Notes: a model not told the origin generated them from the sequence alone. Positions 14,151 through 34,751 are shown, counted from the stretch's first letter. The stretch is 64,000 nt of DNA from a virus (IMGVR_UViG_3300023179_000016:32001-96000), one strand, 5' to 3'. Numbers and translations: made by a program.

Positions 14151-14161
14151 TATATATTCGG
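14151..14161 (-). promoter_or_regulatory. CCGA-N3-TATA promoter-like motif
   Basis: CCGAATATATA; also TAAA-N15-ACCGAATA, the sigma28 spacing. Confidence 0.7.
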
Positions 14162-14165
14162 TATA

Positions 14166-14723
14166 TTATTTAAGCAATTTAGATATTTCTAGATCCAGAC
14201 GGTGCTGAACAGCTAACTCGTCTATTTTAGATCTATTTATGTCTTTGCTTATATCTCTATTTATGCCGCCTTTAGGCTTATCATCTAGTCTAAAGCAGAT
14301 ATAGTACGCGTATCCGTTATCCCAAACGATAAAGGCATTAATCTTTTTAAGTAAGAAAAGAATCCGATTGTGATACTTTTTTGTAAGTTTATATGTCTCT
14401 AGCTTACATTTGACATATTTTTTTTCTGCTCTAAGGGCCTTCTTAAGCAAGAATTGCACGCCTAGTTTCAGATGTTTTACAGGGACTTTGGAAGAAATAT
14501 TAGATCTATAATTGTCAGATTTAAGAATTGCAGTGAGTCTATCGATATCTTTCTTCGACAGGGAAGAACCAGTAGAATTATTTAGCTCTAAAAAAGCTTT
14601 TAAGTTATTTGCTGCAGTTTCGTAATAGTACATCGAATATCGGGCCTTCGAGCGCCGATTATTTATCTCGTTCCTAAGCGAAAGGATATAGCAAATTTCT
14701 TTTATTAGAGAAAAATCTTCCAT
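14166..14723 (-). CDS. basic hypothetical protein
   Basis: start taken at MEDFSL just after the upstream stop. Confidence 0.6.
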   Translation of the reverse strand: MEDFSLIKEICYILSLRNEINNRRSKARYSMYYYETAANNLKAFLELNNSTGSSLSKKDIDRLTAILKSDNYRSNISSKVPVKHLKLGVQFLLKKALRAEKKYVKCKLETYKLTKKYHNRILFLLKKINAFIVWDNGYAYYICFRLDDKPKGGINRDISKDINRSKIDELAVQHRLDLEISKLLK

Positions 14724-14727
14724 CGCA

Positions 14728-15093
14728 CTACTTGCGCTGTTGCTCCAGCAGTTGCTTGATTCTGGATAAGGAGTATTCGGTGTATGACATTGGGGCTTGT
14801 CGTCCGCCGTCAACTGCATTCAACAGCGGCTTGAACAAGCAGAACACGCCAATGTTAAAGGTGATAGCTGCTAAAAGAGCAGAAGTCTTTTCAGTGAACG
14901 GCAGAGTGATATTTGACGTAATGACCAATGAGCTCAACGCAACGAGACACACACCAAGTAGTACGTAGGGCATGGTGGATCTCTTACGTGGCTGAACAGC
15001 CTCTGTTCTTCTATCGTTATCTATCATGATGTTGGTCCTTACCTTTTTTCGTTTTTTTGTAGAGACAGTCTTCTTTTTAAGAGTTCGACGCAT
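14728..15093 (-). CDS. two-TM membrane protein
   Basis: GAGGAG RBS, basic N-terminus, two hydrophobic segments. Confidence 0.65.
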   Translation of the reverse strand: MRRTLKKKTVSTKKRKKVRTNIMIDNDRRTEAVQPRKRSTMPYVLLGVCLVALSSLVITSNITLPFTEKTSALLAAITFNIGVFCLFKPLLNAVDGGRQAPMSYTEYSLSRIKQLLEQQRK

Positions 15094-15338
15094 TATTTGC
15101 TCCTCACGAGTGCTTTGCACTTGACATATTCGACCACATCAAATTTGAGACTTCTATACGCGACTATGAACAGTGTTAATCCAGAGGTTACAGACATCAA
15201 CCAAGTGACAGGAAACAGTCTGGTCGCATTCATGGACATTAGCAGCATATATGTCAATACATTTAGTGACATCCAGGCGCCAAAGCCGCACATAGCTAGC
15301 CAGCAAAAAATAAAAAGTTTTAGCAGAACGCGCATCAA
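15093..15338 (-). CDS. small membrane protein
   Basis: hydrophobic, GGAAGG RBS. Confidence 0.6.
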   Translation of the reverse strand: MMRVLLKLFIFCWLAMCGFGAWMSLNVLTYMLLMSMNATRLFPVTWLMSVTSGLTLFIVAYRSLKFDVVEYVKCKALVRSK

Positions 15339-15829
15339 TCCACCTTCCTCAAGTCTGGAGAGATTAGCTCTGAAAAATAATAGTTCTCCAGAGGTTTATA
15401 GAAGTCACCATAAAAAATGCTCGGATACATGAAGCTTGAAGGTACCTTGTATGTTAGATTTTGTTTTTTGTACGACATCTTATCGGTCGTATGATCTCTA
15501 TTGAGGTGACAATGTCCAATTTCGTGGAAGATGGCGCTTACTTTTTGATCTTCCGTGACATTTGGATCGTTCCAATAAGTCGGATCTACGTAGATGTACT
15601 TGTCTTGGCCATTTCTATCTGACCAGATAACACAGAGACCAATTACGGGTTTCTGCATATCCTTGAATTCAAAGTCAATATCTGACACCTTGCTGCCGCT
15701 CATTGCCTCAAATTTGGCTACATATGGTACAAATTCTGGCTGTATCTTGCCTATCTTGACGGAATGGACTTCCGGGGCACAAGAGGTAGATAGCGCAGTA
15801 ATCATGATGGTGGCAATTTTATTCTTCAT
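15335..15829 (-). CDS. putative lipoprotein zinc metallopeptidase (paralogue of 12471..12983)
   Basis: STSC lipobox-like; IGLC; HEIGHCHLNRDH; SFMYP. Confidence 0.8.
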   Translation of the reverse strand: MKNKIATIMITALSTSCAPEVHSVKIGKIQPEFVPYVAKFEAMSGSKVSDIDFEFKDMQKPVIGLCVIWSDRNGQDKYIYVDPTYWNDPNVTEDQKVSAIFHEIGHCHLNRDHTTDKMSYKKQNLTYKVPSSFMYPSIFYGDFYKPLENYYFSELISPDLRKVD

Positions 15830-15968
15830 TTGAAGAGATCAACCGAAGTTTAGGTTTGACGACCACAGGCTCCGTATAATTACCAATATCTAGTGTGTCA
15901 AGAGACATGATGGCATAGATTTTACCATCGAGAACGACAAAATCAATATGTCCAAAAATGCACTCCAT
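15819..15968 (-). CDS. 49-aa hypothetical protein (not in ORF track)
   Basis: MECIFGHIDF...PKLRLISSNEE fills the gap; TAATG overlap with the upstream gene. Confidence 0.5.
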   Translation of the reverse strand: MECIFGHIDFVVLDGKIYAIMSLDTLDIGNYTEPVVVKPKLRLISSNEE

Positions 15969-16243
15969 TATGCGTTGCCCTTTATCTTGTCAGATGATTT
16001 AATATCGGATTCTAGCTCTTCTAGTTGCGAATCCAGCCTCAGCGCCTGCTCTAAAAACATGTCCTTTATGACGCCATTGGACCTTTTAGCTGCCCTCATT
16101 GAGACCTTGATCAACAACTTGACGAAGTCCATTTTTTTCTGTTTAGATTTCAACAGTTTTTTCTTAGAGATTTTTTTTGCCATCTTAGCACTGTTTGACA
16201 TCGCATTTCTTACAGAAGAGATAAATATCTGTAAAACCGACAT
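15968..16243 (-). CDS. basic hypothetical protein
   Basis: ORF in operon, start uncertain. Confidence 0.5.
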   Translation of the reverse strand: MSVLQIFISSVRNAMSNSAKMAKKISKKKLLKSKQKKMDFVKLLIKVSMRAAKRSNGVIKDMFLEQALRLDSQLEELESDIKSSDKIKGNA

Positions 16244-16340: not shown

Positions 16341-16359
16341 AGAGGTATGTATATTCGGA

Positions 16360-16939: not shown

Positions 16940-16940
16940 G

Positions 16941-17432: not shown

Positions 17433-17466
17433 ATTCTATCTCCTAAAATGTTAACCCGCATAAATC

Positions 17467-17897: not shown

Positions 17898-17914
17898 GCT
17901 GTTCTCGTTTTAAA

Positions 17915-17990
17915 TGGTGGGAGTGGTGGGATTCGAACCCACACTGAACAGGGTTTAAGTCTGTTGTCTCTGCCGTTGGACTACACTCCC
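17915..17990 (-). tRNA. tRNA-Leu(UAA), short variable arm
   Basis: acceptor GGGAGTG/CACTCCC, anticodon loop CTTAAAC, TTCGAAT T-loop, A73, encoded CCA. Confidence 0.85.
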
Positions 17991-17997
17991 GTTTAAA

Positions 17998-18073
17998 TGG
18001 TGGGCGAGGTGGGAATTGAACCCACTACCAAAGGTTTATAAGACCCCTATGCAAACCGGTACACCTCTCGCCC
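17998..18073 (-). tRNA. tRNA-Ile(UAU)
   Basis: acceptor GGGCGAG/CTCGCCC, anticodon loop CTTATAA, TTCAATT T-loop, A73, encoded CCA; A at position 8. Confidence 0.82.
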
Positions 18074-18142
18074 ATACTAGATCTTTTCAGGTGTATGCAA
18101 TCGTCAGGGTCATCTCTTTGGCGTCTTAAATTTACTCCTCAT

Positions 18143-18153
18143 TATATTTTCGG
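18143..18153 (-). promoter_or_regulatory. CCGA-N3-TATA motif upstream of tRNA-Ile/Leu
   Basis: CCGAAAATATA. Confidence 0.6.
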
Positions 18154-18157
18154 AAAA

Positions 18158-18235
18158 TGGCGACCCCGGCAGGGCTCGAACCTGCGACCCACAGCTTAGA
18201 AGGCTGTTGCTCTGATCCTACTGAGCTACGGGGTC
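18158..18235 (-). tRNA. tRNA-Arg(UCU)
   Basis: acceptor GACCCCG/CGGGGTC, stem ACAGC/GCTGT around CTTCTAA, encoded CCA. Confidence 0.93.
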
Positions 18236-18647: not shown

Positions 18648-18848
18648 TTACTTGATACCGAAGCGGATCTTGATGCTGGTCGGAAGAGCCGAGAAGTCTG
18701 CAGGTTTTTTATCTGCATTAGAAGTCGATCGTGACCTAGTTCCCCTAGGAACCCTCCTGGTGGGAAGCTTGGTGATTTTTCCACCAGCTTCCAGAAAACT
18801 TGCGATCTCAGAAGACATTTGAACGCGAACAACAGTTTTACTCCTCAT
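18648..18848 (-). CDS. SutA RNAP-binding-domain-like small protein
   Basis: EIASFLEAGGKITKLP matches the FLxxGGxI/V helix of SutA; GGAGG RBS. Confidence 0.65.
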   Translation of the reverse strand: MRSKTVVRVQMSSEIASFLEAGGKITKLPTRRVPRGTRSRSTSNADKKPADFSALPTSIKIRFGIK

Positions 18849-18864
18849 ATATCCTCCACGAATA

Positions 18865-18875
18865 TATATATTCGG
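18865..18875 (-). promoter_or_regulatory. CCGA-N3-TATA motif
   Basis: CCGAATATATA ending 17 nt before the ATG at 18848. Confidence 0.7.
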
Positions 18876-19299: not shown

Positions 19300-19310
19300 T
19301 ATATATTCGG
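19300..19310 (-). promoter_or_regulatory. CCGA-N3-TATA motif
   Basis: CCGAATATATA. Confidence 0.7.
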
Positions 19311-23072: not shown

Positions 23073-23103
23073 GGCGTAGCGGTGTCAGCCGCGCGGCTGA
23101 CAC
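23073..23103 (-). repeat. GACACTGCTACGCC box (1 mismatch) fused to a 22-bp palindrome
   Basis: ggcgtagcggtgtc; gtgtcagccgcgcggctgacac at a convergent junction. Confidence 0.7.
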
Positions 23104-23114
23104 ACTCGAGCAAG

Positions 23115-23333
23115 TTATTCCTCTTCAGTGTACGGGTTGGAGAAGTCCAGCGCGCCAATAAATCTGGTGGCTAGTACAACTTTAGGTCTTGGAATAACCT
23201 CAACCTCTTTCACGTTCACCCTAATTTTCTTGTGATTATACAGCTGCACCAGCAGATTTTCATCTCCAATAGAGTTTAGAACTTTTGCTTCGGACCCTGA
23301 CCAAATGCCGGACTTAATCTTGATCTTCACCAT
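23115..23333 (-). CDS. KOW/SH3-like small protein
   Basis: VKIKIKSGIWSGSEAKV resembles a KOW motif. Confidence 0.5.
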   Translation of the reverse strand: MVKIKIKSGIWSGSEAKVLNSIGDENLLVQLYNHKKIRVNVKEVEVIPRPKVVLATRFIGALDFSNPYTEEE

Positions 23334-23343
23334 TCGCTGACCC

Positions 23344-23592
23344 TCACTCGGTTGCTTCGCTGTTGTAATTGCGCTGCTGCAGCTCTTCCATGAATCTAGT
23401 ATATGACTTTACGTGTCTCTTGAAGAGAGGGATCGCTTCGTCCCACTTCTCGTCTCCGAGAGCGCACTCGGTCTCTATTACATCTGTCACGAAAGAGATT
23501 GCTTCCGCGTCTGACCCAACCTTCCAAGAAGAAGAAATACCCTTGTTGCTGAGAATGTCATTAACCTGTTCTGCTTTGTTGCTGTTGCTCAT
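23344..23592 (-). CDS. hypothetical protein
   Basis: GGAGG RBS; CCGAATCTATT motif variant at 23616-23626. Confidence 0.65.
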   Translation of the reverse strand: MSNSNKAEQVNDILSNKGISSSWKVGSDAEAISFVTDVIETECALGDEKWDEAIPLFKRHVKSYTRFMEELQQRNYNSEATE

Positions 23593-23755
23593 TAGAGCCT
23601 CCCGTTACTTGGAATAATAGATTCGGTTTTTAGAACTATTTATCTTCGTCGTTGTCGTCTGGGATGTTGGGCGCTAGACAGATAGTGATGATCAGCATGA
23701 TAGCCATCAAGATTAGTGGCGCTGCCTCTGATGCCTTGTCTTCCATGTTGATCCT

Positions 23756-24106
23756 TTAGGGAAGATAAGAGAAATGTATCTGCTCTTCTCTCACTTCGCG
23801 GCTGCACTCGCCGCATTTAGTTTCTCTGAGCAATACGGGATCTCGCTTGATTCCGGTGCCGCCGCAACTCTTGCAGACATTAGATTTTAAGCTGCTGATC
23901 TCCGCTCTCAGCGCTTCATTCTCGAGCTCCAATAGTCTCACATGCCACTCGCGGCACGCACATGCGTTGTGGTGGGAAGTGCACTTCGGAATTTGTCTCA
24001 GTTCTTGCGGTAGAGAATTGAGATCGCACTCGCAATCCAGCACTAGATTGCAACCTGGACACGCCTCATTATACATATAATCACTGTTGGACTTGTATGA
24101 CATCAT
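23756..24106 (-). CDS. Cys-rich protein with coiled coil and DnaJ-like CxxCxGxG
   Basis: CPGC, CTSHHNACAC, LENEALRAEI, CKSCGGTG. Confidence 0.65.
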   Translation of the reverse strand: MMSYKSNSDYMYNEACPGCNLVLDCECDLNSLPQELRQIPKCTSHHNACACREWHVRLLELENEALRAEISSLKSNVCKSCGGTGIKRDPVLLRETKCGECSREVREEQIHFSYLP

Positions 24107-24136
24107 TTTCTCCTGTTTGGTTGTTATATTCAGTTT

Positions 24137-24391
24137 TTAATCGGCGAGCTCGAACTTCATCGAGTTGATCCTCTTCACTGGAACCATATACCAGCTGGCG
24201 GACAAACCGGACAGGAAGAATGTTTTGCTGACAATACTCCAGTAGATGTAGGATTTAAAGTTCGGATTATCGTTAAACATGCCCATAAGATCATCACCGG
24301 ACTTCTCTTCGAGACCGATCATGCGAGCTGCTTCTCTGGGATCGACGGTGGTACCATCTTTGAAGATAACTTTCGTGAGTCTTGACTTCAT
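24137..24391 (-). CDS. hypothetical protein
   Basis: GAGGAG RBS; start probably MKSRLTK. Confidence 0.6.
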   Translation of the reverse strand: MKSRLTKVIFKDGTTVDPREAARMIGLEEKSGDDLMGMFNDNPNFKSYIYWSIVSKTFFLSGLSASWYMVPVKRINSMKFELAD

Positions 24392-24484
24392 TTTTCTCCT
24401 CGACTTAAGAGGTTCTCAATCACTATATTAACTCAAAATACACTACTATCCCACGTGTTTTTATCGTGTCGGTATAAATTACCC

Positions 24485-24640
24485 ATGGAATGGTTGAAAT
24501 GGTTCTTAGTGATACTGGCAGCAGATGTGTGCGCGAGCCTCTTAAAGGAAAGCAATTGGAAGAGATTATTCAAGAAGAAGCGCAAGCGCAGCAGGTCTCG
24601 CAAGGTCGCTCAGATTATACCCCTCAAAAAGGTGGATTAG
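24485..24640 (+). CDS. small single-TM basic protein
   Basis: MEWLKWFLVILAA; ATG 7 nt after TATAAA. Confidence 0.5.
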   Translation: MEWLKWFLVILAADVCASLLKESNWKRLFKKKRKRSRSRKVAQIIPLKKVD

Positions 24641-24849
24641 ATCTTCCTGTCCGCGCACTCGTCGCAGCCTTGAATCTCATTGGAGAACGAGTTGCACTCC
24701 TTGCACGACTCAGCCCAGTATAGGTCCACGATGTTCCCCAAGTCCTCGACCTGCACAGAGCACGCCACCGTCGCATTATTCATCTCGTTGTACGGGACGG
24801 CCTCATTCGACTCAAACTCCACGATGATTCTATACTTGGGCATGATCAC
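24637..24849 (-). CDS. small Cys-containing protein
   Basis: MPKYRIIV...CKEC...CDEC. Confidence 0.6.
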   Translation of the reverse strand: MIMPKYRIIVEFESNEAVPYNEMNNATVACSVQVEDLGNIVDLYWAESCKECNSFSNEIQGCDECADRKI

Positions 24850-25037
24850 TTCACCTTCTTGATGTTGAGAACTTCCTCGTTGAACTCAATATTTTTGTAG
24901 TCGTACTCCACTTCAGACATGGACTTGCGCTTTGAGACCCCGCCGTAGATCTCTGCCGCTCCCCTCTTGGATTTGGCCTTTATGTACCTCACGGAATAGA
25001 TGGTCTGCTTCACTCGGACAGCATACTTCGGCATCAC
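24846..25037 (-). CDS. hypothetical protein
   Basis: MPKYAVRV start similar to neighbour. Confidence 0.6.
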   Translation of the reverse strand: MMPKYAVRVKQTIYSVRYIKAKSKRGAAEIYGGVSKRKSMSEVEYDYKNIEFNEEVLNIKKVK

Positions 25038-25052
25038 TCGACTCTCGCCCCT

Positions 25053-25244
25053 TTATGAGTTGGTCTCTGCGCATGCCGCGATGTGCTGCGCTACGTCCTC
25101 ATCTACGCCCCTCTCTCGCTTCTCGGCCAAGGAGTCTGCGTCGCACCTGCCGCAGGTCTTGACATCGTAACCCTTGAGCCTCAGAAAGAGAGCTTCGCAC
25201 CTCTCGCACGTATGCTTCACGAACGTCATACCCAAGTACTCCAT
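25053..25244 (-). CDS. small zinc-ribbon protein
   Basis: GAGGAGGAG RBS, CERC...CGRC. Confidence 0.65.
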   Translation of the reverse strand: MEYLGMTFVKHTCERCEALFLRLKGYDVKTCGRCDADSLAEKRERGVDEDVAQHIAACAETNS

Positions 25245-25420
25245 ATCACTCCTCCTCGCAAGAGAGCTCAAACGTCTTCTTGTGCTTGACCCGGTCCTTC
25301 TTCAGGGGGTGGACCTTGCTGGGCAATGGTTCCACCCTGGGTCTAATCCTTGGGCGCTTAATCTTCAGGGTGATCTTCTTCATAGAAGACATAGTGCCAC
25401 CTCATCCTTTCGTTATAGGT

Positions 25421-25711
25421 TTACAGCTCGAACTCCCCAACCTTGGGATTCGAACTCGAATTATAGCGGATCCAGGAGCTGCAGGAGTTGCACCTGACAG
25501 TGACGGGGTCGTAGCGATGGACGTACACGTCGGGGGACCCGCAAGCGTAGCAGCTCCTAGAGCAGTAGATGATGTCGATCAGAGCCTCCATAGTGGTCTT
25601 CTCCTCGCTGTGCTTGCCGCAGGAGGTGCAGGTGAAGATGTACGGGTCGCCCACCGTGTACTCGTCGTCCATACCAATATAGACATTGCAGTGGCGGCAG
25701 TAGATCTTCAT
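25421..25711 (-). CDS. double zinc-ribbon protein
   Basis: GAGGAGG RBS before MKIYCRHC; four CxxC pairs. Confidence 0.7.
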   Translation of the reverse strand: MKIYCRHCNVYIGMDDEYTVGDPYIFTCTSCGKHSEEKTTMEALIDIIYCSRSCYACGSPDVYVHRYDPVTVRCNSCSSWIRYNSSSNPKVGEFEL

Positions 25712-25740
25712 AGGTCTAAATCCTCCTCGATTCCAGCGGA

Positions 25741-25751
25741 TATAATCTCGG
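25741..25751 (-). promoter_or_regulatory. CCGA-N3-TATA motif
   Basis: CCGAGATTATA. Confidence 0.7.
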
Positions 25752-25850
25752 GGAAAAGTCGACCGCGCAGAAAAGAGAAGTCCACGCACGTCCCTCATAG
25801 ACACACGTGGACCTCTCTATATCAGCCGGGCTCGCGACCCAACAACCAAC

Positions 25851-26333
25851 TCACTCGCCAGACGTTGCCGTCGGAGCAAACTTGGCAGCGAGCTCCGGGG
25901 GCAGAGCACTGAGGTCGATCGTCGGCTGCTTGGACCGAGCGATCTCGGCGACCCGGGCATCGATGTGGGCCTGGACCTCAGCCCGGTCAGTGACGTCGGT
26001 GAGCGTTCCGAGCAGGGCTCGAAGAGCCTTGAGCTGCGGATCACCAGAACCAGAGCGAGAGCCAGGGTTCTTAGCCACATATGCGACCCCACCGTTCAGC
26101 CGCTTGTCCTTTCGGAGCCAGTTGCTCTGCAGGCCAGAGACATAGGCCTTCAGCTGCTGGTCGGTGAACTCCGTATCGAGCTCGATAGCTCCACCGCGGA
26201 ACCCCTCGAACAGGATCTGGTTCACCATGGCCCGCTCCTCACGGGACATCTCGACTGCACTCGAGAACTCGGTAGTTCCCTTGACGTTGACGACTGCACC
26301 ATAGACTGCTTCTTTCTGACTCATCTTGCTCAT
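25851..26333 (-). CDS. QKEAV...NWLRKDxRLNGG family protein
   Basis: paralogue; GGAGG RBS. Confidence 0.88.
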   Translation of the reverse strand: MSKMSQKEAVYGAVVNVKGTTEFSSAVEMSREERAMVNQILFEGFRGGAIELDTEFTDQQLKAYVSGLQSNWLRKDKRLNGGVAYVAKNPGSRSGSGDPQLKALRALLGTLTDVTDRAEVQAHIDARVAEIARSKQPTIDLSALPPELAAKFAPTATSGE

Positions 26334-26358
26334 AACTAACGTTCCTCCGTTGTTGTTC

Positions 26359-26369
26359 TATAAGATCGG
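26359..26369 (-). promoter_or_regulatory. CCGA-N3-TATA motif
   Basis: CCGATCTTATA. Confidence 0.7.
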
Positions 26370-26534
26370 GATATCGGTCACCACGACCGGTATCTTCACC
26401 TATGGGGTGTTCGGTACTCACTCAAAACTGGCTACTTCCGCGTCTGCTGTGGCTACCTACTGCTTGCCGCCTGCCTCCACTGGGGAGAGCTCCACTCGCG
26501 CTACTCCCTGCTCTCTACATCATTACCACCTAGA

Positions 26535-26545
26535 TATATGTTCGG
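26535..26545 (-). promoter_or_regulatory. CCGA-N3-TATA motif
   Basis: CCGAACATATA; no convincing ORF follows. Confidence 0.6.
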
Positions 26546-26737
26546 GATAATGGGATGTCGTGTAAGTCGCTGATACTATTGGTGGGGAAGGTTGGTGTGG
26601 AAGGGGTGTAACGGTGCCCACCTGAGTCACACTGAGTCTGACCCGACCTGCACGTCGCACTCACCGAGACTCCCCGATACCCGTCCAGACAGCCGATCGG
26701 GCTCGTGAGGTCATAGGCTCGGCTGCACCCGACAGCC

Positions 26738-26751
26738 GGCGTAGCAGTGTC
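26738..26751 (-). repeat. GACACTGCTACGCC box
   Basis: exact copy. Confidence 0.8.
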
Positions 26752-27322
26752 GGCGCGCGCTGAAAAGCAGTGGGTAGGGCAAGCAGCCGCTATTATATAG
26801 CCCGGCCAGGGCCATGTGCTGCCAGATCCCTACCCACGGACGCTTGTTGATCCCTTACTGCCTGAGTCTAGCCGTCGTCAGACAGGTCACCAACCTGTTA
26901 CGACCTCTAGATCGTTTCGGCCTTGGAAAGACTCACGTATCCGGGTACGGTTTTGAGAGCCACCCATCATACATATTCAGCAGGAGACAGAACCGTACAA
27001 GATTCTCCTACCGGTTAGACAATACATCCCGGTACTTCCGTCTAACAAGAGTACCGGATTTACCCCTCACTTTACCCGGACTAGGGACCGGTCACCGATA
27101 AGTGTCCTGGCTAGGACCACCGGTGAGTGGAAAACTGACTTACTTTCTGAGGCAGATGATCGGGAGCAGCGCGCGTGTTTCTGCGCCGAGAAGAAAAGCT
27201 ACGAGCGCATGACAGAAAAGCGTCTAATCCTACCAAGGCGGGCGCCGGGAATTGACCCGCCCACCCAGCGACCGCCCGATAAACCGCTGTTTTTTGAGCC
27301 TAGCTAACCTCCGGGGCGTGGC

Positions 27323-27592
27323 TCATTTCCCCTCCAGCGCGGCGCGGGCAATACTTGGCAATGCACAATCACAGGACTTCCCAAATTGAATGTCGCACCG
27401 TTCATGGTGAATGGTCAGATATTGCTTCAGCGCCTCCCGAAGCCTGGCGTTTTCAGCGCTGACTTCCTCGATTGCGACACGATACCCAGCCAAAAACACT
27501 TCTATGTCAATGTGCATTACAGATGCGTCTTTCTGATAGGCTGGGAATCGCTGCTTTAGATATTCTTCTGCCAGTTTTTCGGCTCTAGTCAT
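27323..27592 (-). CDS. ENARLREAL...ARAALEGK array protein
   Basis: start MTRAEK via ATGA overlap; HHERC...CDC insert. Confidence 0.75.
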   Translation of the reverse strand: MTRAEKLAEEYLKQRFPAYQKDASVMHIDIEVFLAGYRVAIEEVSAENARLREALKQYLTIHHERCDIQFGKSCDCALPSIARAALEGK

Positions 27593-27792
27593 TTCCCCTC
27601 CAGCGCGGCGCGGGCGATCGATGCGCCACAAAGACAACCAGCGGTATAGTCACAACCTTCATCATGGGCGGCAAATCTTTCCAGCGCCTCCCGAAGCCGG
27701 GCGTTCTCGGCTTCCATTTCGGCTCGTCCGGATTCGTAACCCTGTTGCCATCCTGAGCACGTTCCCTTGCATGGGTGATTCAGCTTGTTCAT
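27589..27792 (-). CDS. ENARLREAL array protein
   Basis: HPCKGTCSGWQQGY head; HDEGC...CLC insert. Confidence 0.78.
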   Translation of the reverse strand: MNKLNHPCKGTCSGWQQGYESGRAEMEAENARLREALERFAAHDEGCDYTAGCLCGASIARAALEGK

Positions 27793-28019
27793 TACTTCCC
27801 CTCCAGCGCGGCGCGGGCTTCAATTACTTCCTGTCTAAGTTCATCCCAAGCCTGACCTAGCTCTTCGTCCAGCAGAAGAGCCTCATCCACTTTATTGGTG
27901 ATCTTGCGAAGCGCCTCCCGAAGCCGGGTGTTTTCGGCTAAGAATCGATTCCTGGCCTCTTCAAATCCCCGCAACCACACCAATTCATCCGGACTTCCCG
28001 CCTCAGGTCTTGTGCTCAT
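27792..28019 (-). CDS. ENARLREAL array protein
   Basis: ENTRLREAL...ARAALEGK with a Cys-free insert. Confidence 0.78.
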   Translation of the reverse strand: MSTRPEAGSPDELVWLRGFEEARNRFLAENTRLREALRKITNKVDEALLLDEELGQAWDELRQEVIEARAALEGK

Positions 28020-28233
28020 TTAGTTTCTCCATAACATTGGCAGGGAGCATCTTTTCGTCTTCTAAAAAGACGTAATCGTACCCATCCGCGTGTTTCATCA
28101 GGTCTTCTTTTAACGAGCGAATGTCGGAGCTTATCCACTGTCCTAGAACCTGACCGTCTTCAGTGACACACACACCAACCACGTCCCAACCCGGGCTGGA
28201 CCCAAAGATCGGAAATCCATAAGCCTTCTTCAT
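28003..28233 (-). CDS. hypothetical protein inside the array (no repeat tail)
   Basis: start MKKAYG with GGAGGG RBS supplied by the upstream repeat. Confidence 0.65.
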   Translation of the reverse strand: MKKAYGFPIFGSSPGWDVVGVCVTEDGQVLGQWISSDIRSLKEDLMKHADGYDYVFLEDEKMLPANVMEKLNEHKT

Positions 28234-28565
28234 GCTTCCCTCCCCTCCAGCGCGGCACGGGCTGCACACTGCAGGCACCCCTGGTCGGAATAGCTGCACC
28301 GCTCATCGTGCCCACGGACCATTTCTTTCAGCGCCTCTCGCAGTCGTGCATTCTCAGACCGAAGCATAATTACCTCGTTAAGCCACTGCGGTGGCTCAAT
28401 AATGAGGTAAGACATACCCGCCCTTGTCCCCGGTGGATCGGACAAATGAATTTGTAAAGGCTCTGATGAGGCCAGTACGCAAGCATGGTCCTGAAGCGTG
28501 TTCAGTGAAACTTCTGCACCGCAGCGGGAGCATTTCCCAATTTTGTCGTTTGTAAAAAGGCTCAT
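28230..28565 (-). CDS. ENARLREAL array protein
   Basis: start MSLFTN; CSRC..HAC head; HDERC...CLQC insert. Confidence 0.75.
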   Translation of the reverse strand: MSLFTNDKIGKCSRCGAEVSLNTLQDHACVLASSEPLQIHLSDPPGTRAGMSYLIIEPPQWLNEVIMLRSENARLREALKEMVRGHDERCSYSDQGCLQCAARAALEGREA

Positions 28566-28804
28566 TTCCCCTCCAGCGCGGCGCGGGCGATATTTCCGAG
28601 CGTGCAATCGCAGAATCGAGCAGCGTCCAGCGGTGGGTTATCCCGCGAGGCGCAATCGTGGAAATGCGTGTAAGCGTACTCCTCCAGCGCCTCCCGAAGC
28701 CGGGCATTTTCAGCTTCAAGCTCTTTCATTTTTGTAGTGACTTCTTGGTTATACCGATCGGCAGAATCCAGCATGTCCTTTGTGAGATCCAATTCATCCT
28801 TCAC
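28562..28804 (-). CDS. ENARLREAL array protein (first gene)
   Basis: AGGAG RBS, GTG start; HFHDC...CDC insert. Confidence 0.78.
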   Translation of the reverse strand: MKDELDLTKDMLDSADRYNQEVTTKMKELEAENARLREALEEYAYTHFHDCASRDNPPLDAARFCDCTLGNIARAALEGK

Positions 28805-28993
28805 ACAAACGCTCCTTTCCGAAACTGGGGACTGGCCGCCTTATCCTTTTCCGGAGAGAGTTATGTGTGACACTACTACTCTTCGATGAAGTTTCACGAT
28901 CTTACGCGGCACCGCAGGCACTTCAAGCCTTCTGGGCCATTATATCACACTGTGCGAGATCTGTGGAGCTCTACGTAGGTGAGACTCATGGTA

Positions 28994-29206
28994 TCAACCC
29001 TTGTCTTTGCCGAGGCTGATGGGCAGCAGAGCCATCATCTCGGCGATGACCTGCTCGTCGGTCATCGGAGTGAGCTCGGGATTGGGCGTGAGCTCGGCTG
29101 GCACGTTCGGCCAGGGATACGAGGTCATCTTGAAGGGCTTGCCGGCCGCGACGCCGTACACGGTCTGTGTCTCTGTCTCAGAGTTGTAGCACGAGAGGTA
29201 TCTCAT
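28994..29206 (-). CDS. hypothetical protein
   Basis: AGGAG RBS; CCGATCCTAAA motif variant at 29225-29235. Confidence 0.65.
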   Translation of the reverse strand: MRYLSCYNSETETQTVYGVAAGKPFKMTSYPWPNVPAELTPNPELTPMTDEQVIAEMMALLPISLGKDKG

Positions 29207-29242
29207 ATCTTTCTCCTGTTGAGATTTAGGATCGGGATGGGT

Positions 29243-29404
29243 TCAGAGGTCCTCGACCAGATACTCGCCCTCGATCTCCAGCTCGACTGCGTAGCCCTGC
29301 TCGAGGTACTTATCTCCCACCTCGAGTGCCTGGTCGTAGGAGTCAAACCTGATGCTGGCGAACCTGGAGCACTGACCGATCTCGCGGACGTGGATGGTGT
29401 ACAT
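29243..29404 (-). CDS. 53-aa protein (not in ORF track), paralogue of 18248..18400
   Basis: MYTIHVREIG...DSYDQALEVG; GGAGG RBS. Confidence 0.65.
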   Translation of the reverse strand: MYTIHVREIGQCSRFASIRFDSYDQALEVGDKYLEQGYAVELEIEGEYLVEDL

Positions 29405-29426
29405 TCATATCCTCCATACATGGAAT

Positions 29427-29516
29427 TATATGATCGGGATCGGGTGGGATTCGGTTATATAGTCGGCGTGGCGGTGTCGGTCGGCGAGCAGCCGGGCGGA
29501 GCTTCCTTGCTCCGCC
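29427..29516 (-). promoter_or_regulatory. regulatory cassette: hairpin + box variant + two CCGA-N3-TATA
   Basis: GGCGGAGC-N6-GCTCCGCC 29495-29516; GACACCGCCACGCC 29465-29478; motifs 29456-29466 and 29427-29437. Confidence 0.8.
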
Positions 29517-29528
29517 TGCTCACTCAGG

Positions 29529-29879
29529 TTACTTGGAGTAGGCGACCACACCGTACAGTAGTCCGTTACCGGAACCATCGACTGGTTCGTCGACCATCTT
29601 GTATCCGAAAAGCTCCATGTTGTAGTTGAGTGCGTCGAGCATGTGGTCGATCCACTCGTTGAGTTCATGAGCATCGTCGGGTTTCAAGCCGTCGTCTGCG
29701 TAGTCATAGTGGACGACTATATCGCCCAACTTTATTGAAGGAAGAACTCCGTAGTTAGAGATGTTGGTCGGATCGATCGCTTCGACATACATGCTGCCAG
29801 GCATGTCACACTTGGCCTGGTGCGGAGCAGTTGACTCGAGATTGCTCACCAGTTTCACTACGGTGTTCATGTTAGCCAT
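29529..29879 (-). CDS. hypothetical protein
   Basis: single ORF between two cassettes, GAGG RBS. Confidence 0.7.
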   Translation of the reverse strand: MANMNTVVKLVSNLESTAPHQAKCDMPGSMYVEAIDPTNISNYGVLPSIKLGDIVVHYDYADDGLKPDDAHELNEWIDHMLDALNYNMELFGYKMVDEPVDGSGNGLLYGVVAYSK

Positions 29880-30006
29880 CAGGCAGACCTCTGGGTTATG
29901 AGTTAATTATTTAACCCATCGACAATTATATATAATGTCGGTAATGAGTTTACGGGTGGCGTAGCAGTGTCAGCGAGCAGCTGGGCGGAGCTTCCTTGCT
30001 CCGCCC
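29876..30006 (-). promoter_or_regulatory. regulatory cassette with duplicated leader
   Basis: hairpin 29983-30006, box 29958-29971, CCGACATTATA 29931-29941, leader hairpin 29898-29919. Confidence 0.82.
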
Positions 30007-30020
30007 AACCGCAGGTCAGC

Positions 30021-30488
30021 TCAGGCCTTGAACTTCGCGGCCAGCTCTGCAGGCAGCTGGCTGAAGTCGATGGCGGGCTTCGCGGGCTTGGCGATCTCGG
30101 CACTCCTGAGGTCGATGAAGTGCTGGATCTCAGCCCTGTCGGCCGGGTCAGTCACCGTGCTGAGCAGGGCCTTGAGAGCCTTGATCTGCGGGTCGCCAGA
30201 GCCAGAGCGAGCACCAGGGTTCTTGGTGACCCAGGTAGTCCCGCCGTTGAGTCGCTGGTCCTTGCGGAGCCAGTTGTTCACGAGGCCGACCACGTACTTC
30301 TTGAGCTCCGGCTCAGAGAAGTTGGCCTTGAGGGTGATCTTACCCTCCTTGAACATGGTGACCAGCTCCGAGTGGATCTGGGCCAGCTCAGACTTGCTGG
30401 GCGTGTGAGCTCCGTTAGGAGCGAACTGAGTGCAGAAGCAGCTGACGACATTGAAGACCGCTTCCTTCTGGTTCATTGCTGCGATCAT
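30021..30488 (-). CDS. QKEAV...NWLRKDxRLNGG family protein
   Basis: GGAGG RBS before MIAAMNQKEAV. Confidence 0.85.
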   Translation of the reverse strand: MIAAMNQKEAVFNVVSCFCTQFAPNGAHTPSKSELAQIHSELVTMFKEGKITLKANFSEPELKKYVVGLVNNWLRKDQRLNGGTTWVTKNPGARSGSGDPQIKALKALLSTVTDPADRAEIQHFIDLRSAEIAKPAKPAIDFSQLPAELAAKFKA

Positions 30489-30570
30489 GCGGGTTTCCTC
30501 CGTTGGTTGGTTGTAGGTTCGGGCGCGAGCTGTAAACTCGAGCATCATGCGCTCGACATTTACAATTAGA

Positions 30571-30656
30571 TATAAGATCGGGGGAAGTCGGTATGCGGCC
30601 GGCGTAGCAGTGTCACGGCGCGCGGACCAAAGGGTGGGGTCGTCCATGACCCCACC
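30571..30656 (-). promoter_or_regulatory. regulatory cassette
   Basis: hairpin GGTGGGGTC/GACCCCACC 30633-30656, box 30601-30614, CCGATCTTATA 30571-30581. Confidence 0.8.
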
Positions 30657-30667
30657 GTATCAGCGAC

Positions 30668-30925
30668 TCAACCGGTCAGCAGGTCGTTCCAGTCGACTGG
30701 TACGTAGCACTCGCCGGTCTCGCGGGCGAACTCGGATGGAGTGGGTTCGCGGCCGACTCGCACGTGCTGGTCGAGCTCCTCGATGTAGACGACCGACGGT
30801 TCGGAGTCAGTGACCTCATAGAAGTACTGATCAGCGTCCGCATCCAGCATCTCCCGCTGGATTCCCTCGTGGGTGACGAGGACGGTATAGTCGGTGCACG
30901 GCACAATAGAGATGAGTTTCACCAT
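30668..30925 (-). CDS. hypothetical acidic protein
   Basis: single ORF between cassettes, GGAGG RBS. Confidence 0.7.
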   Translation of the reverse strand: MVKLISIVPCTDYTVLVTHEGIQREMLDADADQYFYEVTDSEPSVVYIEELDQHVRVGREPTPSEFARETGECYVPVDWNDLLTG

Positions 30926-31071
30926 CAGGCAGACCTCCAGGTTATGAGTTAATTATTTAACTCATCATTCACTTTTATATATAATGTCGGTAATAGGACA
31001 CCAGGCGTAGCAGTGTCGGTGGCTCGAGCTACCGAGCCCGCTGCGGGGCGGAGCTTCCGTGCTCCGCCCCG
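30922..31071 (-). promoter_or_regulatory. regulatory cassette with duplicated leader
   Basis: hairpin 31044-31071, box 31004-31017, CCGACATTATA 30980-30990, palindrome 30944-30965; leader near-identical to 29876-29945. Confidence 0.82.
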
Positions 31072-31084
31072 ACCCGCTCTTCGC

Positions 31085-31522
31085 TCAGCGCTTGCCGAAC
31101 TTGGCTGCGATCTCTGCAGGCAGCTTGCTGAAGTCGACCTTGGGTCGGTTCAGCTCGGCGATCCGAGAGTCGATGTGTCGCTGGATCTCAGCTCGATCCG
31201 TCGGGTCGGTGATGGTGCTGAGCAGAGCCCTGAGCGCAGTCAGCTGGGGATCATCGACTCGGGAGGACTTGGGTTGGTGATCGACCCCACCGTTCAGCCG
31301 CTTGTCCTTTCGGAGCCAGTTGTTGAGCAACCCTGAGACATAGTTGCTCAGCTCCTTGTCGGTGTACTCCTTCCTGAGCTCGATGCTCCCGTTCCTGAAC
31401 CCCTCGAACAAGACCTGACGGATGGTTCGGGTCTGCTCAGAAGTCGGCTCGCAGACGCCGACTCCATCGAACCCGGTGATCGCGACCACTGCCTGGTAGA
31501 CTGCTTCCTTCTGGTTCATCAT
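31085..31522 (-). CDS. QKEAV...NWLRKDxRLNGG family protein
   Basis: GAGGAG RBS before MMNQKEAV. Confidence 0.85.
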   Translation of the reverse strand: MMNQKEAVYQAVVAITGFDGVGVCEPTSEQTRTIRQVLFEGFRNGSIELRKEYTDKELSNYVSGLLNNWLRKDKRLNGGVDHQPKSSRVDDPQLTALRALLSTITDPTDRAEIQRHIDSRIAELNRPKVDFSKLPAEIAAKFGKR

Positions 31523-31660
31523 GCGATGCTCCTCATGATCCATTGTAGGATCAGTTGACACATCCATGCGTCGGGTTGATTGATATGTAATGTCAGTACA
31601 ACATCACACATCAACATGTAAGATCAGTATTTAATTAAATACCAATCATTTACATATAGA

Positions 31661-31671
31661 TATAAGATCGG
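31661..31671 (-). promoter_or_regulatory. CCGA-N3-TATA motif
   Basis: CCGATCTTATA; CTGA-N3-TACA variants near 31586 and 31617. Confidence 0.7.
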
Positions 31672-31695
31672 AAATCGTCGGGAAGAGATCATCCG

Positions 31696-31802
31696 AAAAT
31701 AGGGCCCGCCGACCTCGACTTACAAGGGATCCCTAGAGTCGGGACCGGTACACGCTGCGCGAACGCTCTCTACATGCAACTTTTTATAAAATAGGGCCCG
31801 CC
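31696..31802. repeat. 15-bp direct repeat at the strand-divergence point
   Basis: AAAATAGGGCCCGCC at 31696-31710 and 31788-31802. Confidence 0.75.
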
Positions 31803-31868
31803 ACCCTTGCTCCCTAATAGGTACAATTTAACCGGTACCTCTTTTGCCTATTATATAAAAATAAACTC

Positions 31869-33692
31869 ATGAAGACCTATCATTTTAAGAAAGACAACGA
31901 GATACACTCTAGCATACCGAGAATAAAATTAACCGCTCTGCTTCTTCTCCTGAAGATAACGACGATCAAGGACCTAAACCTAGAACACATATGACACGCG
32001 CACTACAAGCCAGCATCGTACGCCTATTGCTCACCCAAGACGGATATATCACTCCCAGCGACCCATCGGACGAGCCATGCACCCACACCGCAGACCTCTT
32101 GCTCCTGCTATATAAGATGGGCCTAGGGAGACTCCGCGCATGAGGCTCCACGACACCAGGGACCTGCTCAAGGTACTCGAGAAGCTCAATATCGCCTCCG
32201 CCAGCGAAAAGATAATGAGCGAGCTCACCGAGCACATGAAGCTGTGGTTTGGCCATTTTGATCAGGCTCACCCGGGCGCATACGCACCTATAGTCGACAA
32301 AAATGAAGAAAACTGAGTTTGACGAGCATATGTATAGGCGCCTGGCTGGCTTCTTGGGCTGCATGGGCATAGAGATAGACGATTCTATGCTCGACCTGAT
32401 AAGGCGACACCACTGGCTCGACATGCGACAGGCGCGGCGCCCGTTCAAGCGCTACGGCGAGGACGACGATCTAGGCGACGAAGACGGCACCCTGTATCTC
32501 GCCGCAGCCGCGAGCGACGCACGGGACATAAAGCCGTGCGGATGCGAGTGGAATATAGTGAGACGTGTTCTCTATAAGGGGCAATGGTGTGTAGGCTGCT
32601 CGATGCACTTGATAGAGTTGCTAGAGATGCTCGGCGTCATCAGGGGTGAGGGAAGCGTCGAGGCCACCGTCATGTCGGCGCAAAAAGATGAGTGCGGCGC
32701 CTGGTAAGACCGTACACGTCAGGCTCAGATGTGAGGGCGAGGAGTCGCTCGTCAGGTTGTTGAGCCGTCTAGAGGTGATACAATTATTAGCTATGCTGTA
32801 CGAGTACGGCTCTTCGAGAAGCATGTCGAGCCGCGCGTACGATGCAGTGATAATTGTCTCTAGGGGTGACGAGGCAGATGAAAATCGATGACGTGCTTAG
32901 ATATATCATGGCTTTTGCGGAGCAGGACCGGTGGAATACCAGGATGAATGGGTTGCCGCAGGATGCAGTGGTGCGCTTGCTCATGAAGCTGAGAGTTGTG
33001 GATGGGGTGGGGGCCCTAAGAAGCGTTGATGGAGAAAGATGCGGGGCGTGCGGATCAAGCAATAGACAAGAAGACAAGTATGTCGCTTTTATGGAGAGTA
33101 AGTAGAAGATAATCTCTTACTTTGTTTTTGTGAAGTTTATAGTGGATTTTGAGAGATCTAACGACATGCCGGTTACCAAGGATTTTCTATGTCTTATAGA
33201 GAAGCTTGGTATATTAAAATTTAAGCAGCTTTACAGTCTCGAGCACTGGTTTTCTGACATAATGATAATAGAGTATGACTAGCAACAGGCAGTTCAGTGA
33301 CTGGTATCAGCACGCGCAGAGATTGGCCAAGAAGATATCGTTTAGAAGATTCATATATCGATTGTTAAAAGTGTAATGAGCGACACAGAAGATAGCGATA
33401 CGATAAGAGACACTAAAAAATTCTTTGACTACCTGTCTTGCGCGTTCGCCAAGAAGATGGTCCTCATAGAGTTTCTGCGCAGATTGATGAAGATGCCATG
33501 AGCCACGTCAGCGATAACAATCTCATAAGGGTAAGGGAATATCAGGTGAAGCGCAGACTTGTCAGATTCATATACAAGATGATAGATAAGCCCATCGCGA
33601 CTAGCATGATCGATGCCCTTATGGAGTCGTTTAATATAAGTCTAAATGAAAACTACGAACTGATAGTGAAAGATATAGACGACATCAGCTAG
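31869..33692 (+). other. operon of about ten overlapping micro-ORFs
   Basis: 31869-31994, 31991-32143, 32140-32316, 32303-32707, 32688-32891, 32878-33105, 33166-33282, 33275-33376, 33376-33501, 33498-33692; mostly overlapping start/stop regions, several ATGA or TAATG. Confidence 0.6.
32303..32707 (+). CDS. hypothetical protein with Cys pairs
   Basis: PCGC...WCVGC; part of the micro-ORF operon. Confidence 0.6.
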   Translation: MKKTEFDEHMYRRLAGFLGCMGIEIDDSMLDLIRRHHWLDMRQARRPFKRYGEDDDLGDEDGTLYLAAAASDARDIKPCGCEWNIVRRVLYKGQWCVGCSMHLIELLEMLGVIRGEGSVEATVMSAQKDECGAW

Positions 33693-34249
33693 TGGCAATC
33701 TCACTCGCCAGCTTTGTCATATAATCTACCCATAGATCATCTGGGTTTGCATTCTTGATGCCTAGAAATCTCAATAGAGATAACATCGACATTGCCGCAT
33801 CTATCTCTCTATATGTTGAGTTCTTGTTCACGGTGGCCGGCATTTCTGGAATGAGAGAATAGTAGTTTATACATGAAAAATTTAAGCTCTAATGCGTAAT
33901 AGACATTGACCTTGCCATGTCTACTGCCTATATTGAAATTTAATTCTCTGTCAAATATCTTTTCCATGTGTATTCCCTCGCGTGTTGGCAGAGGAAACAT
34001 TCATAAATTTGTGTTAGCCTCTGCGTTCAAAAGCTATCACTTAATTATATCAGTGAACAACACTAGAGTTAAGATGTTGACTTAAATTAATAATTATTTA
34101 AGTTCAATATGGAAATGCGTTTGCAGAAGAGGATGCAACTTCGCCGGATTGGTATTTCTTATATATTTCTTCGCCGACGAGCTTCATCATGAACATGTAT
34201 AGTGAAAATTTTATATTTTCTTCTATATGTCTGTTGAAAAGCAGATTGT

Positions 34250-34489
34250 TTATTTTCGATCCCATTTATATTCTTGTACCTCGACGTCTCCTCCCATCAA
34301 GGTGTGATGCATTAAAACATCTACTGCCATTCTGGATCGCTGCTGTGTGGTTGGAGGGACTGTATTCAAGAATTCAGGTAAGCATATGCCTCTAAACGGA
34401 CACTTTGAACAGCGCTGCGATTCCATGCACTTGCCGTCTAATTCAATTATCTGCTCTAATATTTCTACATCTTCTGAATTAAGAGCCAT
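34250..34489 (-). CDS. small Cys-cluster protein
   Basis: ILEQIIELDGKC-x5-CSKCP-x4-C. Confidence 0.7.
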   Translation of the reverse strand: MALNSEDVEILEQIIELDGKCMESQRCSKCPFRGICLPEFLNTVPPTTQQRSRMAVDVLMHHTLMGGDVEVQEYKWDRK

Positions 34490-34736
34490 TGTTTCCTAAA
34501 AGATCGTCTACGGCTTCATCTAATAGCAACTTAGTTGCTATCTCGAGATATTTTGCATCGGCCTGTTCCTCAGTAAGATCTTCGATTCCTACAGCCTCGA
34601 CGCAAGACATCCAGGTGCCATCTGGTTTTTGCTTTAACTTACTCATAGGGCATGTTGCACATATGTTGGGTTTTGCCCAGCAACAGTTGCCTTCCTCTTC
34701 TATTATTTTTTTTAAGATGTTCTTCTTCTGGTCCAT
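34479..34736 (-). CDS. small Cys-cluster protein (paralogue of 34250..34489)
   Basis: ILKKIIEEEGNCC-x6-CATCP...SC. Confidence 0.7.
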   Translation of the reverse strand: MDQKKNILKKIIEEEGNCCWAKPNICATCPMSKLKQKPDGTWMSCVEAVGIEDLTEEQADAKYLEIATKLLLDEAVDDLLGNNGS

Positions 34737-34740
34737 TTTA

Positions 34741-34751
34741 TATATATTCGG
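34741..34751 (-). promoter_or_regulatory. CCGA-N3-TATA motif
   Basis: CCGAATATATA immediately before ATG 34736. Confidence 0.65.

Follow-up and report, generated by a model that had tools for sequence, protein, structure and literature searches.

A strand-specific CCGA-N3-TATA box, probably a promoter element, in a clade of uncultured myoviruses, and a FliA/WhiG-like phage protein as its candidate reader

Promoters read by the flagellar sigma factor sigma28 (FliA/WhiG/SigD) have the consensus TAAA-N15-GCCGATAA, and the FliA holoenzyme begins transcription about 8 nt beyond the -10 part. Late transcription in phage T4 involves the sigma2-like protein gp55, together with gp33, at a promoter which consists of a -10 element only (TATAAATA), and T4 middle promoters combine a MotA box at about -30 with a -10 element. 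Detailed knowledge of phage-specific promoter classes and their readers is limited to a handful of cultured phages. The subject of this report is a box of the form CCGA-N3-TATA (CCGANNNTATA), which was found in a 64,000-nucleotide (nt) stretch of viral DNA, hereafter the window (IMGVR_UViG_3300023179_000016:32001-96000). Its position, strand and conservation indicate with good confidence that it is a promoter element. Two further descriptions serve for comparison. In the sigma28 open complex, GCCGATAA lies at -15 to -8 and A-11 is flipped out, while R80 reads G-12, D87 reads C-13/G-12 and R97 reads the upstream GC (PMC12784957). The promoter-early stem-loops (PeSLs) of T4-type phages are modules of terminator hairpin and promoter between small variable genes (PMC2839356, PMC4122927).

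The window comprises bases 32001-96000 of a linear 153,399-bp IMG/VR virus record, the completeness of which was judged to be 91%. Coordinates refer to the window unless genome positions are stated. The phage under study is designated G000, related genomes are designated G001 to G005, and related loci or contigs carry L-numbers. Fifty-seven related loci were fetched around homologs of the tail sheath protein (48-83% identity), and the whole genomes G001 and G005 were also fetched. The phage is a myovirus, with genes for tail sheath, baseplate, major head protein, portal and terminase. Its minus-strand (leftward) block, genome 11.9-66.7 kb, contains many small open reading frames (ORFs), three tRNAs, and genes for ligase, nucleases and ClpP-like proteases.

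Sixteen copies of the box were identified in the window, all of them on the minus strand, compared with 1.94 expected and a maximum of 6 in 100 dinucleotide-preserving shuffles. The whole record holds 19 reverse and no forward copies. A preliminary description of this sequence had listed 14 exact minus-strand copies, nearly all upstream of starts or tRNAs, and every one was recovered. It had also reported none in the structural region, which is slightly wrong: two exact copies lie antisense inside rightward structural genes, about the chance number there. Twelve of 16 copies in the leftward block have, within the next 100 nt, an ORF of 50 or more amino acids (aa) together with its start codon and a Shine-Dalgarno (SD) core, a context found at 13% of block positions (binomial p = 2.7e-8). 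The remaining four comprise one copy in the tRNA cluster, the copy at 34741, which stands 4 nt before an ATG with no SD, and those at 26535 and 31661, whose targets are uncertain. Four variants given in the preliminary description (12173, 16348, 23616 and 29225) each stand upstream of an SD and ATG, and further variants of the same kind were found at 3051, 5903 and 30512, which brings the candidate sites to roughly 25, all leftward. TATA and ATG are 16-17 nt apart at four sites and 22-93 nt apart elsewhere, with the exception of the 4-nt case at 34741. The sites in the window are as follows.

14151..14161, minus strand: box CCGAATATATA, 16 nt before the ATG of a 107-aa ORF; the sole site with TAAA at sigma28 spacing
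18143..18153, minus strand: box separating tRNA-Arg from tRNA-Ile/Leu; candidate promoter within the tRNA cluster 17915-18235
18865..18875, minus strand: box, 16 nt before the ATG of a 66-aa ORF; GGAGG begins 7 nt after TATA
19300..19310, minus strand: box; the SD and ATG of a 66-aa ORF follow after 37 nt
25741..25751, minus strand: box in a GC-rich island; the SD and ATG of a 96-aa ORF follow after 29 nt
26359..26369, minus strand: box; the SD and ATG of a 160-aa ORF follow after 25 nt
26535..26545, minus strand: box, no clear ORF within 100 nt
29456-29466 and 29427-29437, minus strand: two tandem boxes before the SD and ATG of a 53-aa ORF
29931..29941, minus strand: box, 16 nt downstream of a 14-mer (see below), then a hairpin leader and the SD and ATG of a 116-aa ORF
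30571..30581, minus strand: box with a 14-mer 19 nt upstream; SD and ATG of a 155-aa ORF 82 nt on
30980..30990, minus strand: box, 13 nt downstream of a 14-mer; leader as at 29931, but an unrelated 85-aa ORF
31661..31671, minus strand: box, then an AT-rich hairpin leader; ORF start uncertain
34741..34751, minus strand: box; the ATG of a conserved 85-aa ORF follows after 4 nt, with no SD; divergent junction with the tail operon
3051..3061, minus strand: variant box CCGAATTTATC before an SD and ATG
5903..5913, minus strand: variant box CCGATATTAAA before an SD and ATG
12173..12183, minus strand: variant box CCGAATATAAT before an SD and ATG
16348..16358, minus strand: variant box CCGAATATACA, 7 nt before an ATG
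23616..23626, minus strand: variant box CCGAATCTATT before an SD and ATG
29225..29235, minus strand: variant box CCGATCCTAAA before an SD and ATG
30512..30522, minus strand: variant box CCGAACCTACA before an SD and ATG; second candidate promoter within the 30571 leader
36725..36735, minus strand: exact box, antisense in a rightward structural gene; probably a chance copy
55235..55245, minus strand: exact box, antisense in a 2376-aa baseplate gene; probably a chance copy

The box at 18143 runs directly into ATGAGGAGTAAA, 12 bases with which the 66-aa ORF downstream of the 18865 box also begins (18140-18153 compared with 18836-18875, minus strand), and this repeat looks like the remnant of a duplicated promoter-gene unit in the tRNA cluster.

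When the 17 non-genic copies were aligned and the bases counted by position, conservation was limited to CCGA, TATA and the next base (A or T). No -35-like conserved column was present upstream in these 17 sites. The base before CCGA is mostly T, C or A, not G, and the three bases after CCGA in G000 are not TAA, unlike those of a sigma28 -10. The eighth base after TATA is G at 12 of the 17 sites. The features of a sigma70-type extended -10 were also absent from the 17 sites, with no TG at the needed place and with A7 C6 T4 at the -7 position. The likeness to sigma28 promoters resides in the CCGA core with its invariant G-A, equivalent to G-12 and the flipped A-11 of sigma28 complexes (PMC12784957), while the box differs in lacking both a TAAA -35 and a G before CCGA and in having an invariant TATA 3 nt downstream. 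TAAA at the sigma28 spacing (N15) was found at 14151 and at no other site, as the preliminary description had noted. Its comparison of CCGA with the sigma28 -10 gains weight from a FliA/WhiG-type region 2 domain encoded by the phage (below).

The one-mismatch class CTGA-N3-TATA has nine reverse and no forward copies in genome 91954-115873 (minus strand). As a promoter class it was rejected; most copies are antisense in rightward genes, and only that at genome 29682 is promoter-like. Counting of over-represented gapped dyads over the whole genome was not informative, since repeats in the coding sequence of collagen-like fibre genes made up most of the result.

In G000 three boxes have an exact copy of a 14-mer, GACACTGCTACGCC, 13-19 nt upstream of them. 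Six copies of the 14-mer, variants included, occur in the window (23073-31017), and it is found also in L027, L044, L052, G001, G005 and others. Thirteen of the 17 G000 boxes have no 14-mer, and it is the weaker boxes which tend to have one. The 14-mer is always preceded by a hairpin: at four consecutive spacers GC hairpins (dG -26 to -43 kcal/mol) stand directly before 14-mer and box. The copies of the 14-mer and two of the hairpin regions are listed here.

31004..31017, minus strand: 14-mer GACACTGCTACGCC, upstream of the 30980 box
30601..30614, minus strand: 14-mer GACACTGCTACGCC, upstream of the 30571 box
29958..29971, minus strand: 14-mer GACACTGCTACGCC, upstream of the 29931 box
29465..29478, minus strand: variant 14-mer GACACCGCCACGCC, overlapping the 29456 box
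26738..26751, minus strand: 14-mer, with a weak box CCGAGCCTATG 15 nt after it
23073..23086, minus strand: variant 14-mer GACACCGCTACGCC; its GACAC is the 3' arm of a hairpin, and no good box follows
29977..30012, minus strand: GC-rich hairpin that closes the preceding gene and adjoins the 14-mer; dG -33.9 kcal/mol, z -5.0
31009..31071, minus strand: two GC-rich hairpins before the 14-mer; dG -43.1 kcal/mol, z -3.5

Within the 57 related loci the 14-mer, allowing one mismatch, has 43 copies, every one on the minus strand, and it was strand-specific in three further genomes (G002-G004) as well. It was found neither in Myxococcus phage Mx1 nor in the literature searched. The 14-mer is better conserved than any protein of the clade. 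About 30 of the 43 distinct sites, from nearly every lineage, continue into C-Y-G-A-N3-T-A-Y-A despite differing flanks, and in the interval from hairpin to gene the 14-mer and the box are the only conserved parts. Two ranges of spacing between them predominate, 12-19 and 22-27 nt, which differ by about one helical turn; since copies within a lineage are partly duplicates, the phasing is no more than suggestive. In some lineages the box-like sequences are nearer to a sigma28 -10, reading CCGATAC or CCGATAT (CCGATAC/CGATAT in G001 and G004). In the L044/G004 lineage the GC hairpin that abuts the 14-mer ends in a T-run and so has the form of a canonical intrinsic terminator; the signal that starts the next unit must therefore lie in the interval from 14-mer to box.

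The genes behind the 29931 and 30980 boxes are unrelated but have the same leader of about 70 nt, which hints at shuffling or exchange of cassettes. On this architecture the combination of box, 14-mer and hairpin is interpreted as a terminator-promoter cassette of the PeSL kind, that is, a stem-loop joined to a putative promoter and repeated between variable small genes. As in PeSLs, the composite modules recur in a hyperplastic region, and identical modules flank unrelated genes (29931 and 30980). Unlike PeSLs, the promoter part is not a sigma70 early promoter, an extra invariant 14-mer is present, and the modules are common to far more divergent phages. T4 middle promoters resemble these cassettes in that a phage-specific upstream box, here the 14-mer, takes the place of the -35 and is joined to a -10-type element; the 14-mer is, however, longer, is invariant across distant relatives, occurs at two spacings about one helical turn apart and belongs to only part of the sites. 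No MotA or AsiA homolog turned up, although no search was aimed at them. Hairpins ending the cassette genes of G000 (29494-31572, minus strand) have A-N-GGA-N hexaloops and no U-tracts, and those of the L044 lineage have T-runs. The GC-rich island at 24000-33000 (GC 0.51-0.56 versus about 0.38 elsewhere) is composed of single-gene cassettes.

Matches to sigma70-type -35/-10 promoters between 15100 and 35000 numbered 35, as against 28.6 +/- 5.7 in shuffled sequence, and intrinsic terminators were no commoner there than in shuffled sequence. Since sigma70-type promoters occur only at the shuffle level, the leftward units need another signal. The rightward genes, as the preliminary description had proposed, carry a different, sigma70-like element, tGG-TAnAAT, which is a textbook extended -10 without a -35, combining TGn with a hexamer that has A-11 and T-7. 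This element is enriched in the intergenic DNA of G000, G001 and G005. It stands upstream of structural and replication genes as well as of some leftward ones. The rightward blocks lie at genome 113-133 kb (replication), 133-153 kb (head), 0-11.7 kb (fibres) and 66.8-109.7 kb (tail). The scheme in which early genes rely on an alternative or phage sigma factor and late genes on sigma70 is not supported as an assignment of timing: recognition of late genes by sigma70 is plausible, but the same element precedes replication and some leftward genes. Sites of this second class, and a GTATAAT element at the divergent junction, are given below.

34791..34798, plus strand: tGG-TAnAAT element GGTATAAT, heading the rightward tail operon
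6607, 20543, 22039, 31820, 35143 and 44067, and in genome 127898-144403, plus strand: other tGG-TAnAAT sites
34761..34767, minus strand: GTATAAT with TTTAAA-N18 upstream, 9 nt upstream of the 34741 box; the element which most relatives keep there

The whole genome was searched for a sigma factor, and a region 2 domain was found whose only significant family and PDB matches are FliA/WhiG. It belongs to P0001, a protein of 641 aa encoded outside the window at genome 147656-149581 (L014:9656-11581, plus strand). Residues 508-544 match Sigma70_r2 above the Pfam cut-off. For residues 470-565, approximately, the best families are FliA/WhiG (TIGR02479, E 5.9e-11), other sigma groups giving E-values of about 3e-6 or worse. 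P0001 is not a full-length member of the FliA/WhiG family, since the match covers positions 19-91 of a 224-position model with 42.5 bits against a cut-off of 189.6. The best PDB sequence match is E. coli FliA (6pmi_F, E 1.1e-5), aligned through a VPRSVRR segment, and the PDB chains matched by a profile built from 33 homologs were all WhiG or FliA (E 3e-7 to 2e-6).

An AlphaFold2 model of residues 250-641, with a predicted local distance difference test (pLDDT) score of 76, superposes on the sigma2 domain of sigB (VIA-align Z 7.8, root mean square deviation 2.4 A over 90 residues) and also on domains of RpoS, pro-sigmaK, WhiG, sigma70 and sigma28. An N-terminal helix of the model packs at the place of region 1.2. 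All top Foldseek matches in the PDB were sigma factors, with weak E-values (0.03 or higher). It is the sequence evidence which carries weight, because the structural Z values are moderate for helical proteins. Regions 3.2 and 4 are absent from P0001, and low-complexity sequence follows the region 2.4/3.0 helix; a protein without region 4 fits promoters without a -35. Complex prediction of residues 455-575 with the E. coli beta' clamp helices scored 0.00, which is evidence neither for nor against binding.

At least 159 homologs of P0001 were identified, with 44-63% identity, all on uncultured phage contigs of up to about 180-200 kb and none in cultured phages (50,697 phage records). They are present in G001, G002, G003 and G005, genomes in which box and 14-mer were found. 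The gene order protease, major head protein, P0001 and phrog_772 protein is kept in G001 and G005. P0001 itself consists of an N-terminal MPGFVRSKKDE...LEKAR motif, a long acidic low-complexity stretch, a conserved helical domain (250-460) and then the sigma2 domain. Its gene is located between those for the major head protein and the neck and tail proteins, and P0001 is possibly a capsid cargo.

The most distant genome, G004, encodes a stand-alone sigma2-only protein of 159 aa (L093:1534-2013, minus strand) beside a ClpP-like gene. Like P0001 it matches FliA/WhiG best, and residues equivalent to sigma28 R80 and D87 are retained. The G004 boxes read ACTCGATAT(A), close to the sigma28/sigmaD -10 CCGATAT, with the 14-mer unchanged. 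Only four copies of ACYCGATAT were counted genome-wide in G004, those beside 14-mers, which is not above control. The parallel change of protein and box between G004 and the P0001 lineages amounts to one contrast only; it agrees in direction with a sigma2 domain that reads the box and another factor that reads the 14-mer. A small second protein, P0002 (132 aa; L014:492-890, plus strand), has a weak Sigma70_r4-like helix-turn-helix (HTH; 20.9 bits, short of the cut-off) and shares 48-62% identity with its counterparts in relatives; at 48% identity it is, alongside the unchanged 14-mer, the better conserved protein in G004. Besides P0002, a 154-aa HTH protein (genome 132102-132566) is a candidate for binding the 14-mer. 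Upstream of P0002 a 191-aa protein (L013:14917-15492, plus strand) has a weak match to the GreA/GreB C-terminal domain (17.9 bits), and both genes are co-oriented with the portal gene.

T4 late transcription offers a near parallel for such a reader. Like gp55, a truncated phage sigma factor without region 4 would direct the host core polymerase to a single -10-type box, and a small separate protein with a weak region-4-like HTH (P0002) is encoded as well. The systems differ in the sequence of the box and in the sigma2 domain, which is of the FliA/WhiG type and is usually fused to an N-terminal part of about 450 aa in the head module. Nor is coupling to a sliding clamp known here, and the genes served look accessory or early, not late.

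The preferred interpretation is that the box would be the core (-10-type) element of a clade-specific promoter class without a -35, starting the transcription units of the leftward accessory block, which are small ORFs, gene cassettes of the GC island and tRNAs. A complete cassette would run from the GC hairpin of the previous gene through the 14-mer GACACTGCTACGCC, a spacer of 12-19 or 22-27 nt and the box to a leader, SD and ATG. The 14-mer would occupy the place of the -35 or lie about one helical turn further upstream, presumably bound by a separate, highly conserved DNA-binding factor. We infer that the box may be read by host core RNA polymerase carrying the phage sigma fragment, that is, the C-terminal domain of P0001. 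In the sigma28 register the bases would be C-14 C-13 G-12 A-11, with TATA at -7 to -4 and a start about 3 nt after TATA; such a start fits the 4-nt case as a leaderless mRNA (ATG 34736) and leaves a few bases before the SD at the four sites with 16-17 nt. For the reading as a whole, with a FliA/WhiG-like sigma2-only phage protein as reader of a promoter box, the chances appear evenly balanced.

Several observations weigh against this interpretation. The 85-aa gene at the orthologous divergent junction (34736-34808) is preceded in most relatives by GTATAAT without a full box; in G000, where the two elements stand 9 nt from each other, the 34741 box may lie at the 5' end of a transcript. The partial duplication of copies within lineages means that the counts overstate independence. 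TATA is invariant in the box and is without a counterpart in sigma28 promoters, and the G at the eighth base after TATA fits equally well a sigma70-like register with TATA at -12 to -9. P0001, unlike sigma28, has changed base-reading residues (R80 to V, D87 to T and R97 to Q in a pairwise alignment, with K and T as the family consensus at R80 and D87). A sigma2-only phage protein might, like T4 gp55, serve the other -10-only class (TGG-TAnAAT). Finally, P0001 is encoded among head genes downstream of promoters of the second class (class B), which is odd for the switch of an early-looking block. Either the protein is packaged and injected, or the leftward block is not early, or P0001 has another purpose.

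Alternatively, the box may be read by the host primary sigma factor, with TATA(W) as a weak -10, CCGA as spacer or upstream element, and a phage or host activator on the 14-mer replacing the -35 in the manner of MotA; the FliA-like fragment would then serve, for example, TGG-TAnAAT or host shut-off. The invariant A at the second position of TATA and the G at the eighth base would give a sigma70-like distance from -10 to start, and the 14-mer stands at the place of an activator box and tends to accompany the weaker boxes, but most G000 boxes have none. The encoding of P0001 in a late-looking operon would also be accommodated. On the other hand, the -7 base is not T, although T-7 is among the two most conserved bases for primary sigma factors, CCGA would fall at -19 to -16, where no base-specific contacts of the sigma70 holoenzyme are known, and a good extended -10 class is already present in the same genome. 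This assignment is unlikely, but less so than the other alternatives.

It is distinctly less probable that the box acts in RNA as an element of the 5' leader (a processing site, or a repressor operator in the style of T4 RegA/RegB) or as a DNA site of some other strand-specific process. The distance from box to start varies from 4 to more than 80 nt, even though it is fixed at 16-17 nt at four sites, and one copy precedes tRNAs. Events at 34741 would suit a leader element, given that a sigma70-like promoter just upstream would put the box at the RNA 5' end and that relatives keep CYGA a few bases before the ATG of this gene, without TATA. The cassettes, however, offer no other promoter candidate between terminator hairpin and box, and the AT-rich, TATA-rich content suits DNA melting.

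Initiation by a phage-encoded or virion RNA polymerase that has escaped recognition, starting right after TATA, is very improbable. The -11 to -1 core of SP6/T7 promoters, GTGA-CAC-TATA-G, resembles CYGA-N3-TATA, the copies of the box vary little, short leaders (4 and 16 nt) would be easily fitted, and the genome encodes several very large proteins without known function. Yet the base after TATA is A or T, not G, and no match to the T7-like polymerase family (PF00940) was found in this genome or four relatives (three complete) in a search without a positive control. The giant proteins of the tail region, considered as hidden polymerases, were rejected, as they match only baseplate or fibre families or nothing.

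Reading by the host FliA holoenzyme, which would tie the leftward genes to a motility or attack-phase programme, can hardly be maintained: GCCGATAA has CCGA as its core, a TAAA stands exactly N15 upstream at 14151 and some lineages have CCGATAC or CCGATAT, but the TAAA -35 needed by this holoenzyme is absent from all sites but one, no G precedes CCGA, the conserved TATA is foreign to sigma28 promoters, a host factor is unnecessary because the phage carries its own FliA-like domain, and a flagellar sigma factor is probably absent from Bacteroidota, should these be the hosts.

The suggested link to the attack phase of Bdellovibrio likewise found no support. The nearest cultured relative is Myxococcus phage Mx1, with a sheath identity of just 32%, and DNA matches to cultured relatives are confined to tRNA. 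Two related contigs (L095 and L096, including the 146,658-bp G001 contig) lie in metagenome-assembled genome bins named Saprospiraceae and Cytophagales, which is either a hint at the host or a binning artefact. SD-like motifs precede 32-56% of long ORFs versus about 10% in controls, which conflicts with the Bacteroidota binning, such a frequency being unusual for Bacteroidota.

A bolder form of the proposal, in which the sigma2 reader is virion-borne, is improbable at present. The sigma2 domain would be made late with an acidic, head-protein-like N-terminus, packed, injected and able to convert the host core polymerase at once to the CCGA-TATA promoters, with a second factor, possibly P0002, docking on the 14-mer. 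If true, such a split sigma factor would be a third way to start a phage programme, beside injected polymerases (N4, phiKZ) and unmodified host holoenzyme.

Truncated phage sigma factors with their promoters and PeSL-like cassettes are known kinds of system; what is new here is a conserved composite grammar of promoter cassettes. The clade consists of large, widespread, uncultured myoviruses of about 150-180 kb, dozens of contigs of which carry the 14-mer, and it displays a two-class promoter grammar together with a truncated flagellar-type sigma domain as candidate reader. The invariant 14-mer points to a candidate second recognition partner beside the sigma fragment. If the proposal is true, the sigma28 mode of -10 recognition would have been captured and re-tuned by phages, a compact orthogonal pair of promoter and sigma factor would be available, and the transcription units of these metagenomic genomes could be annotated from sequence.

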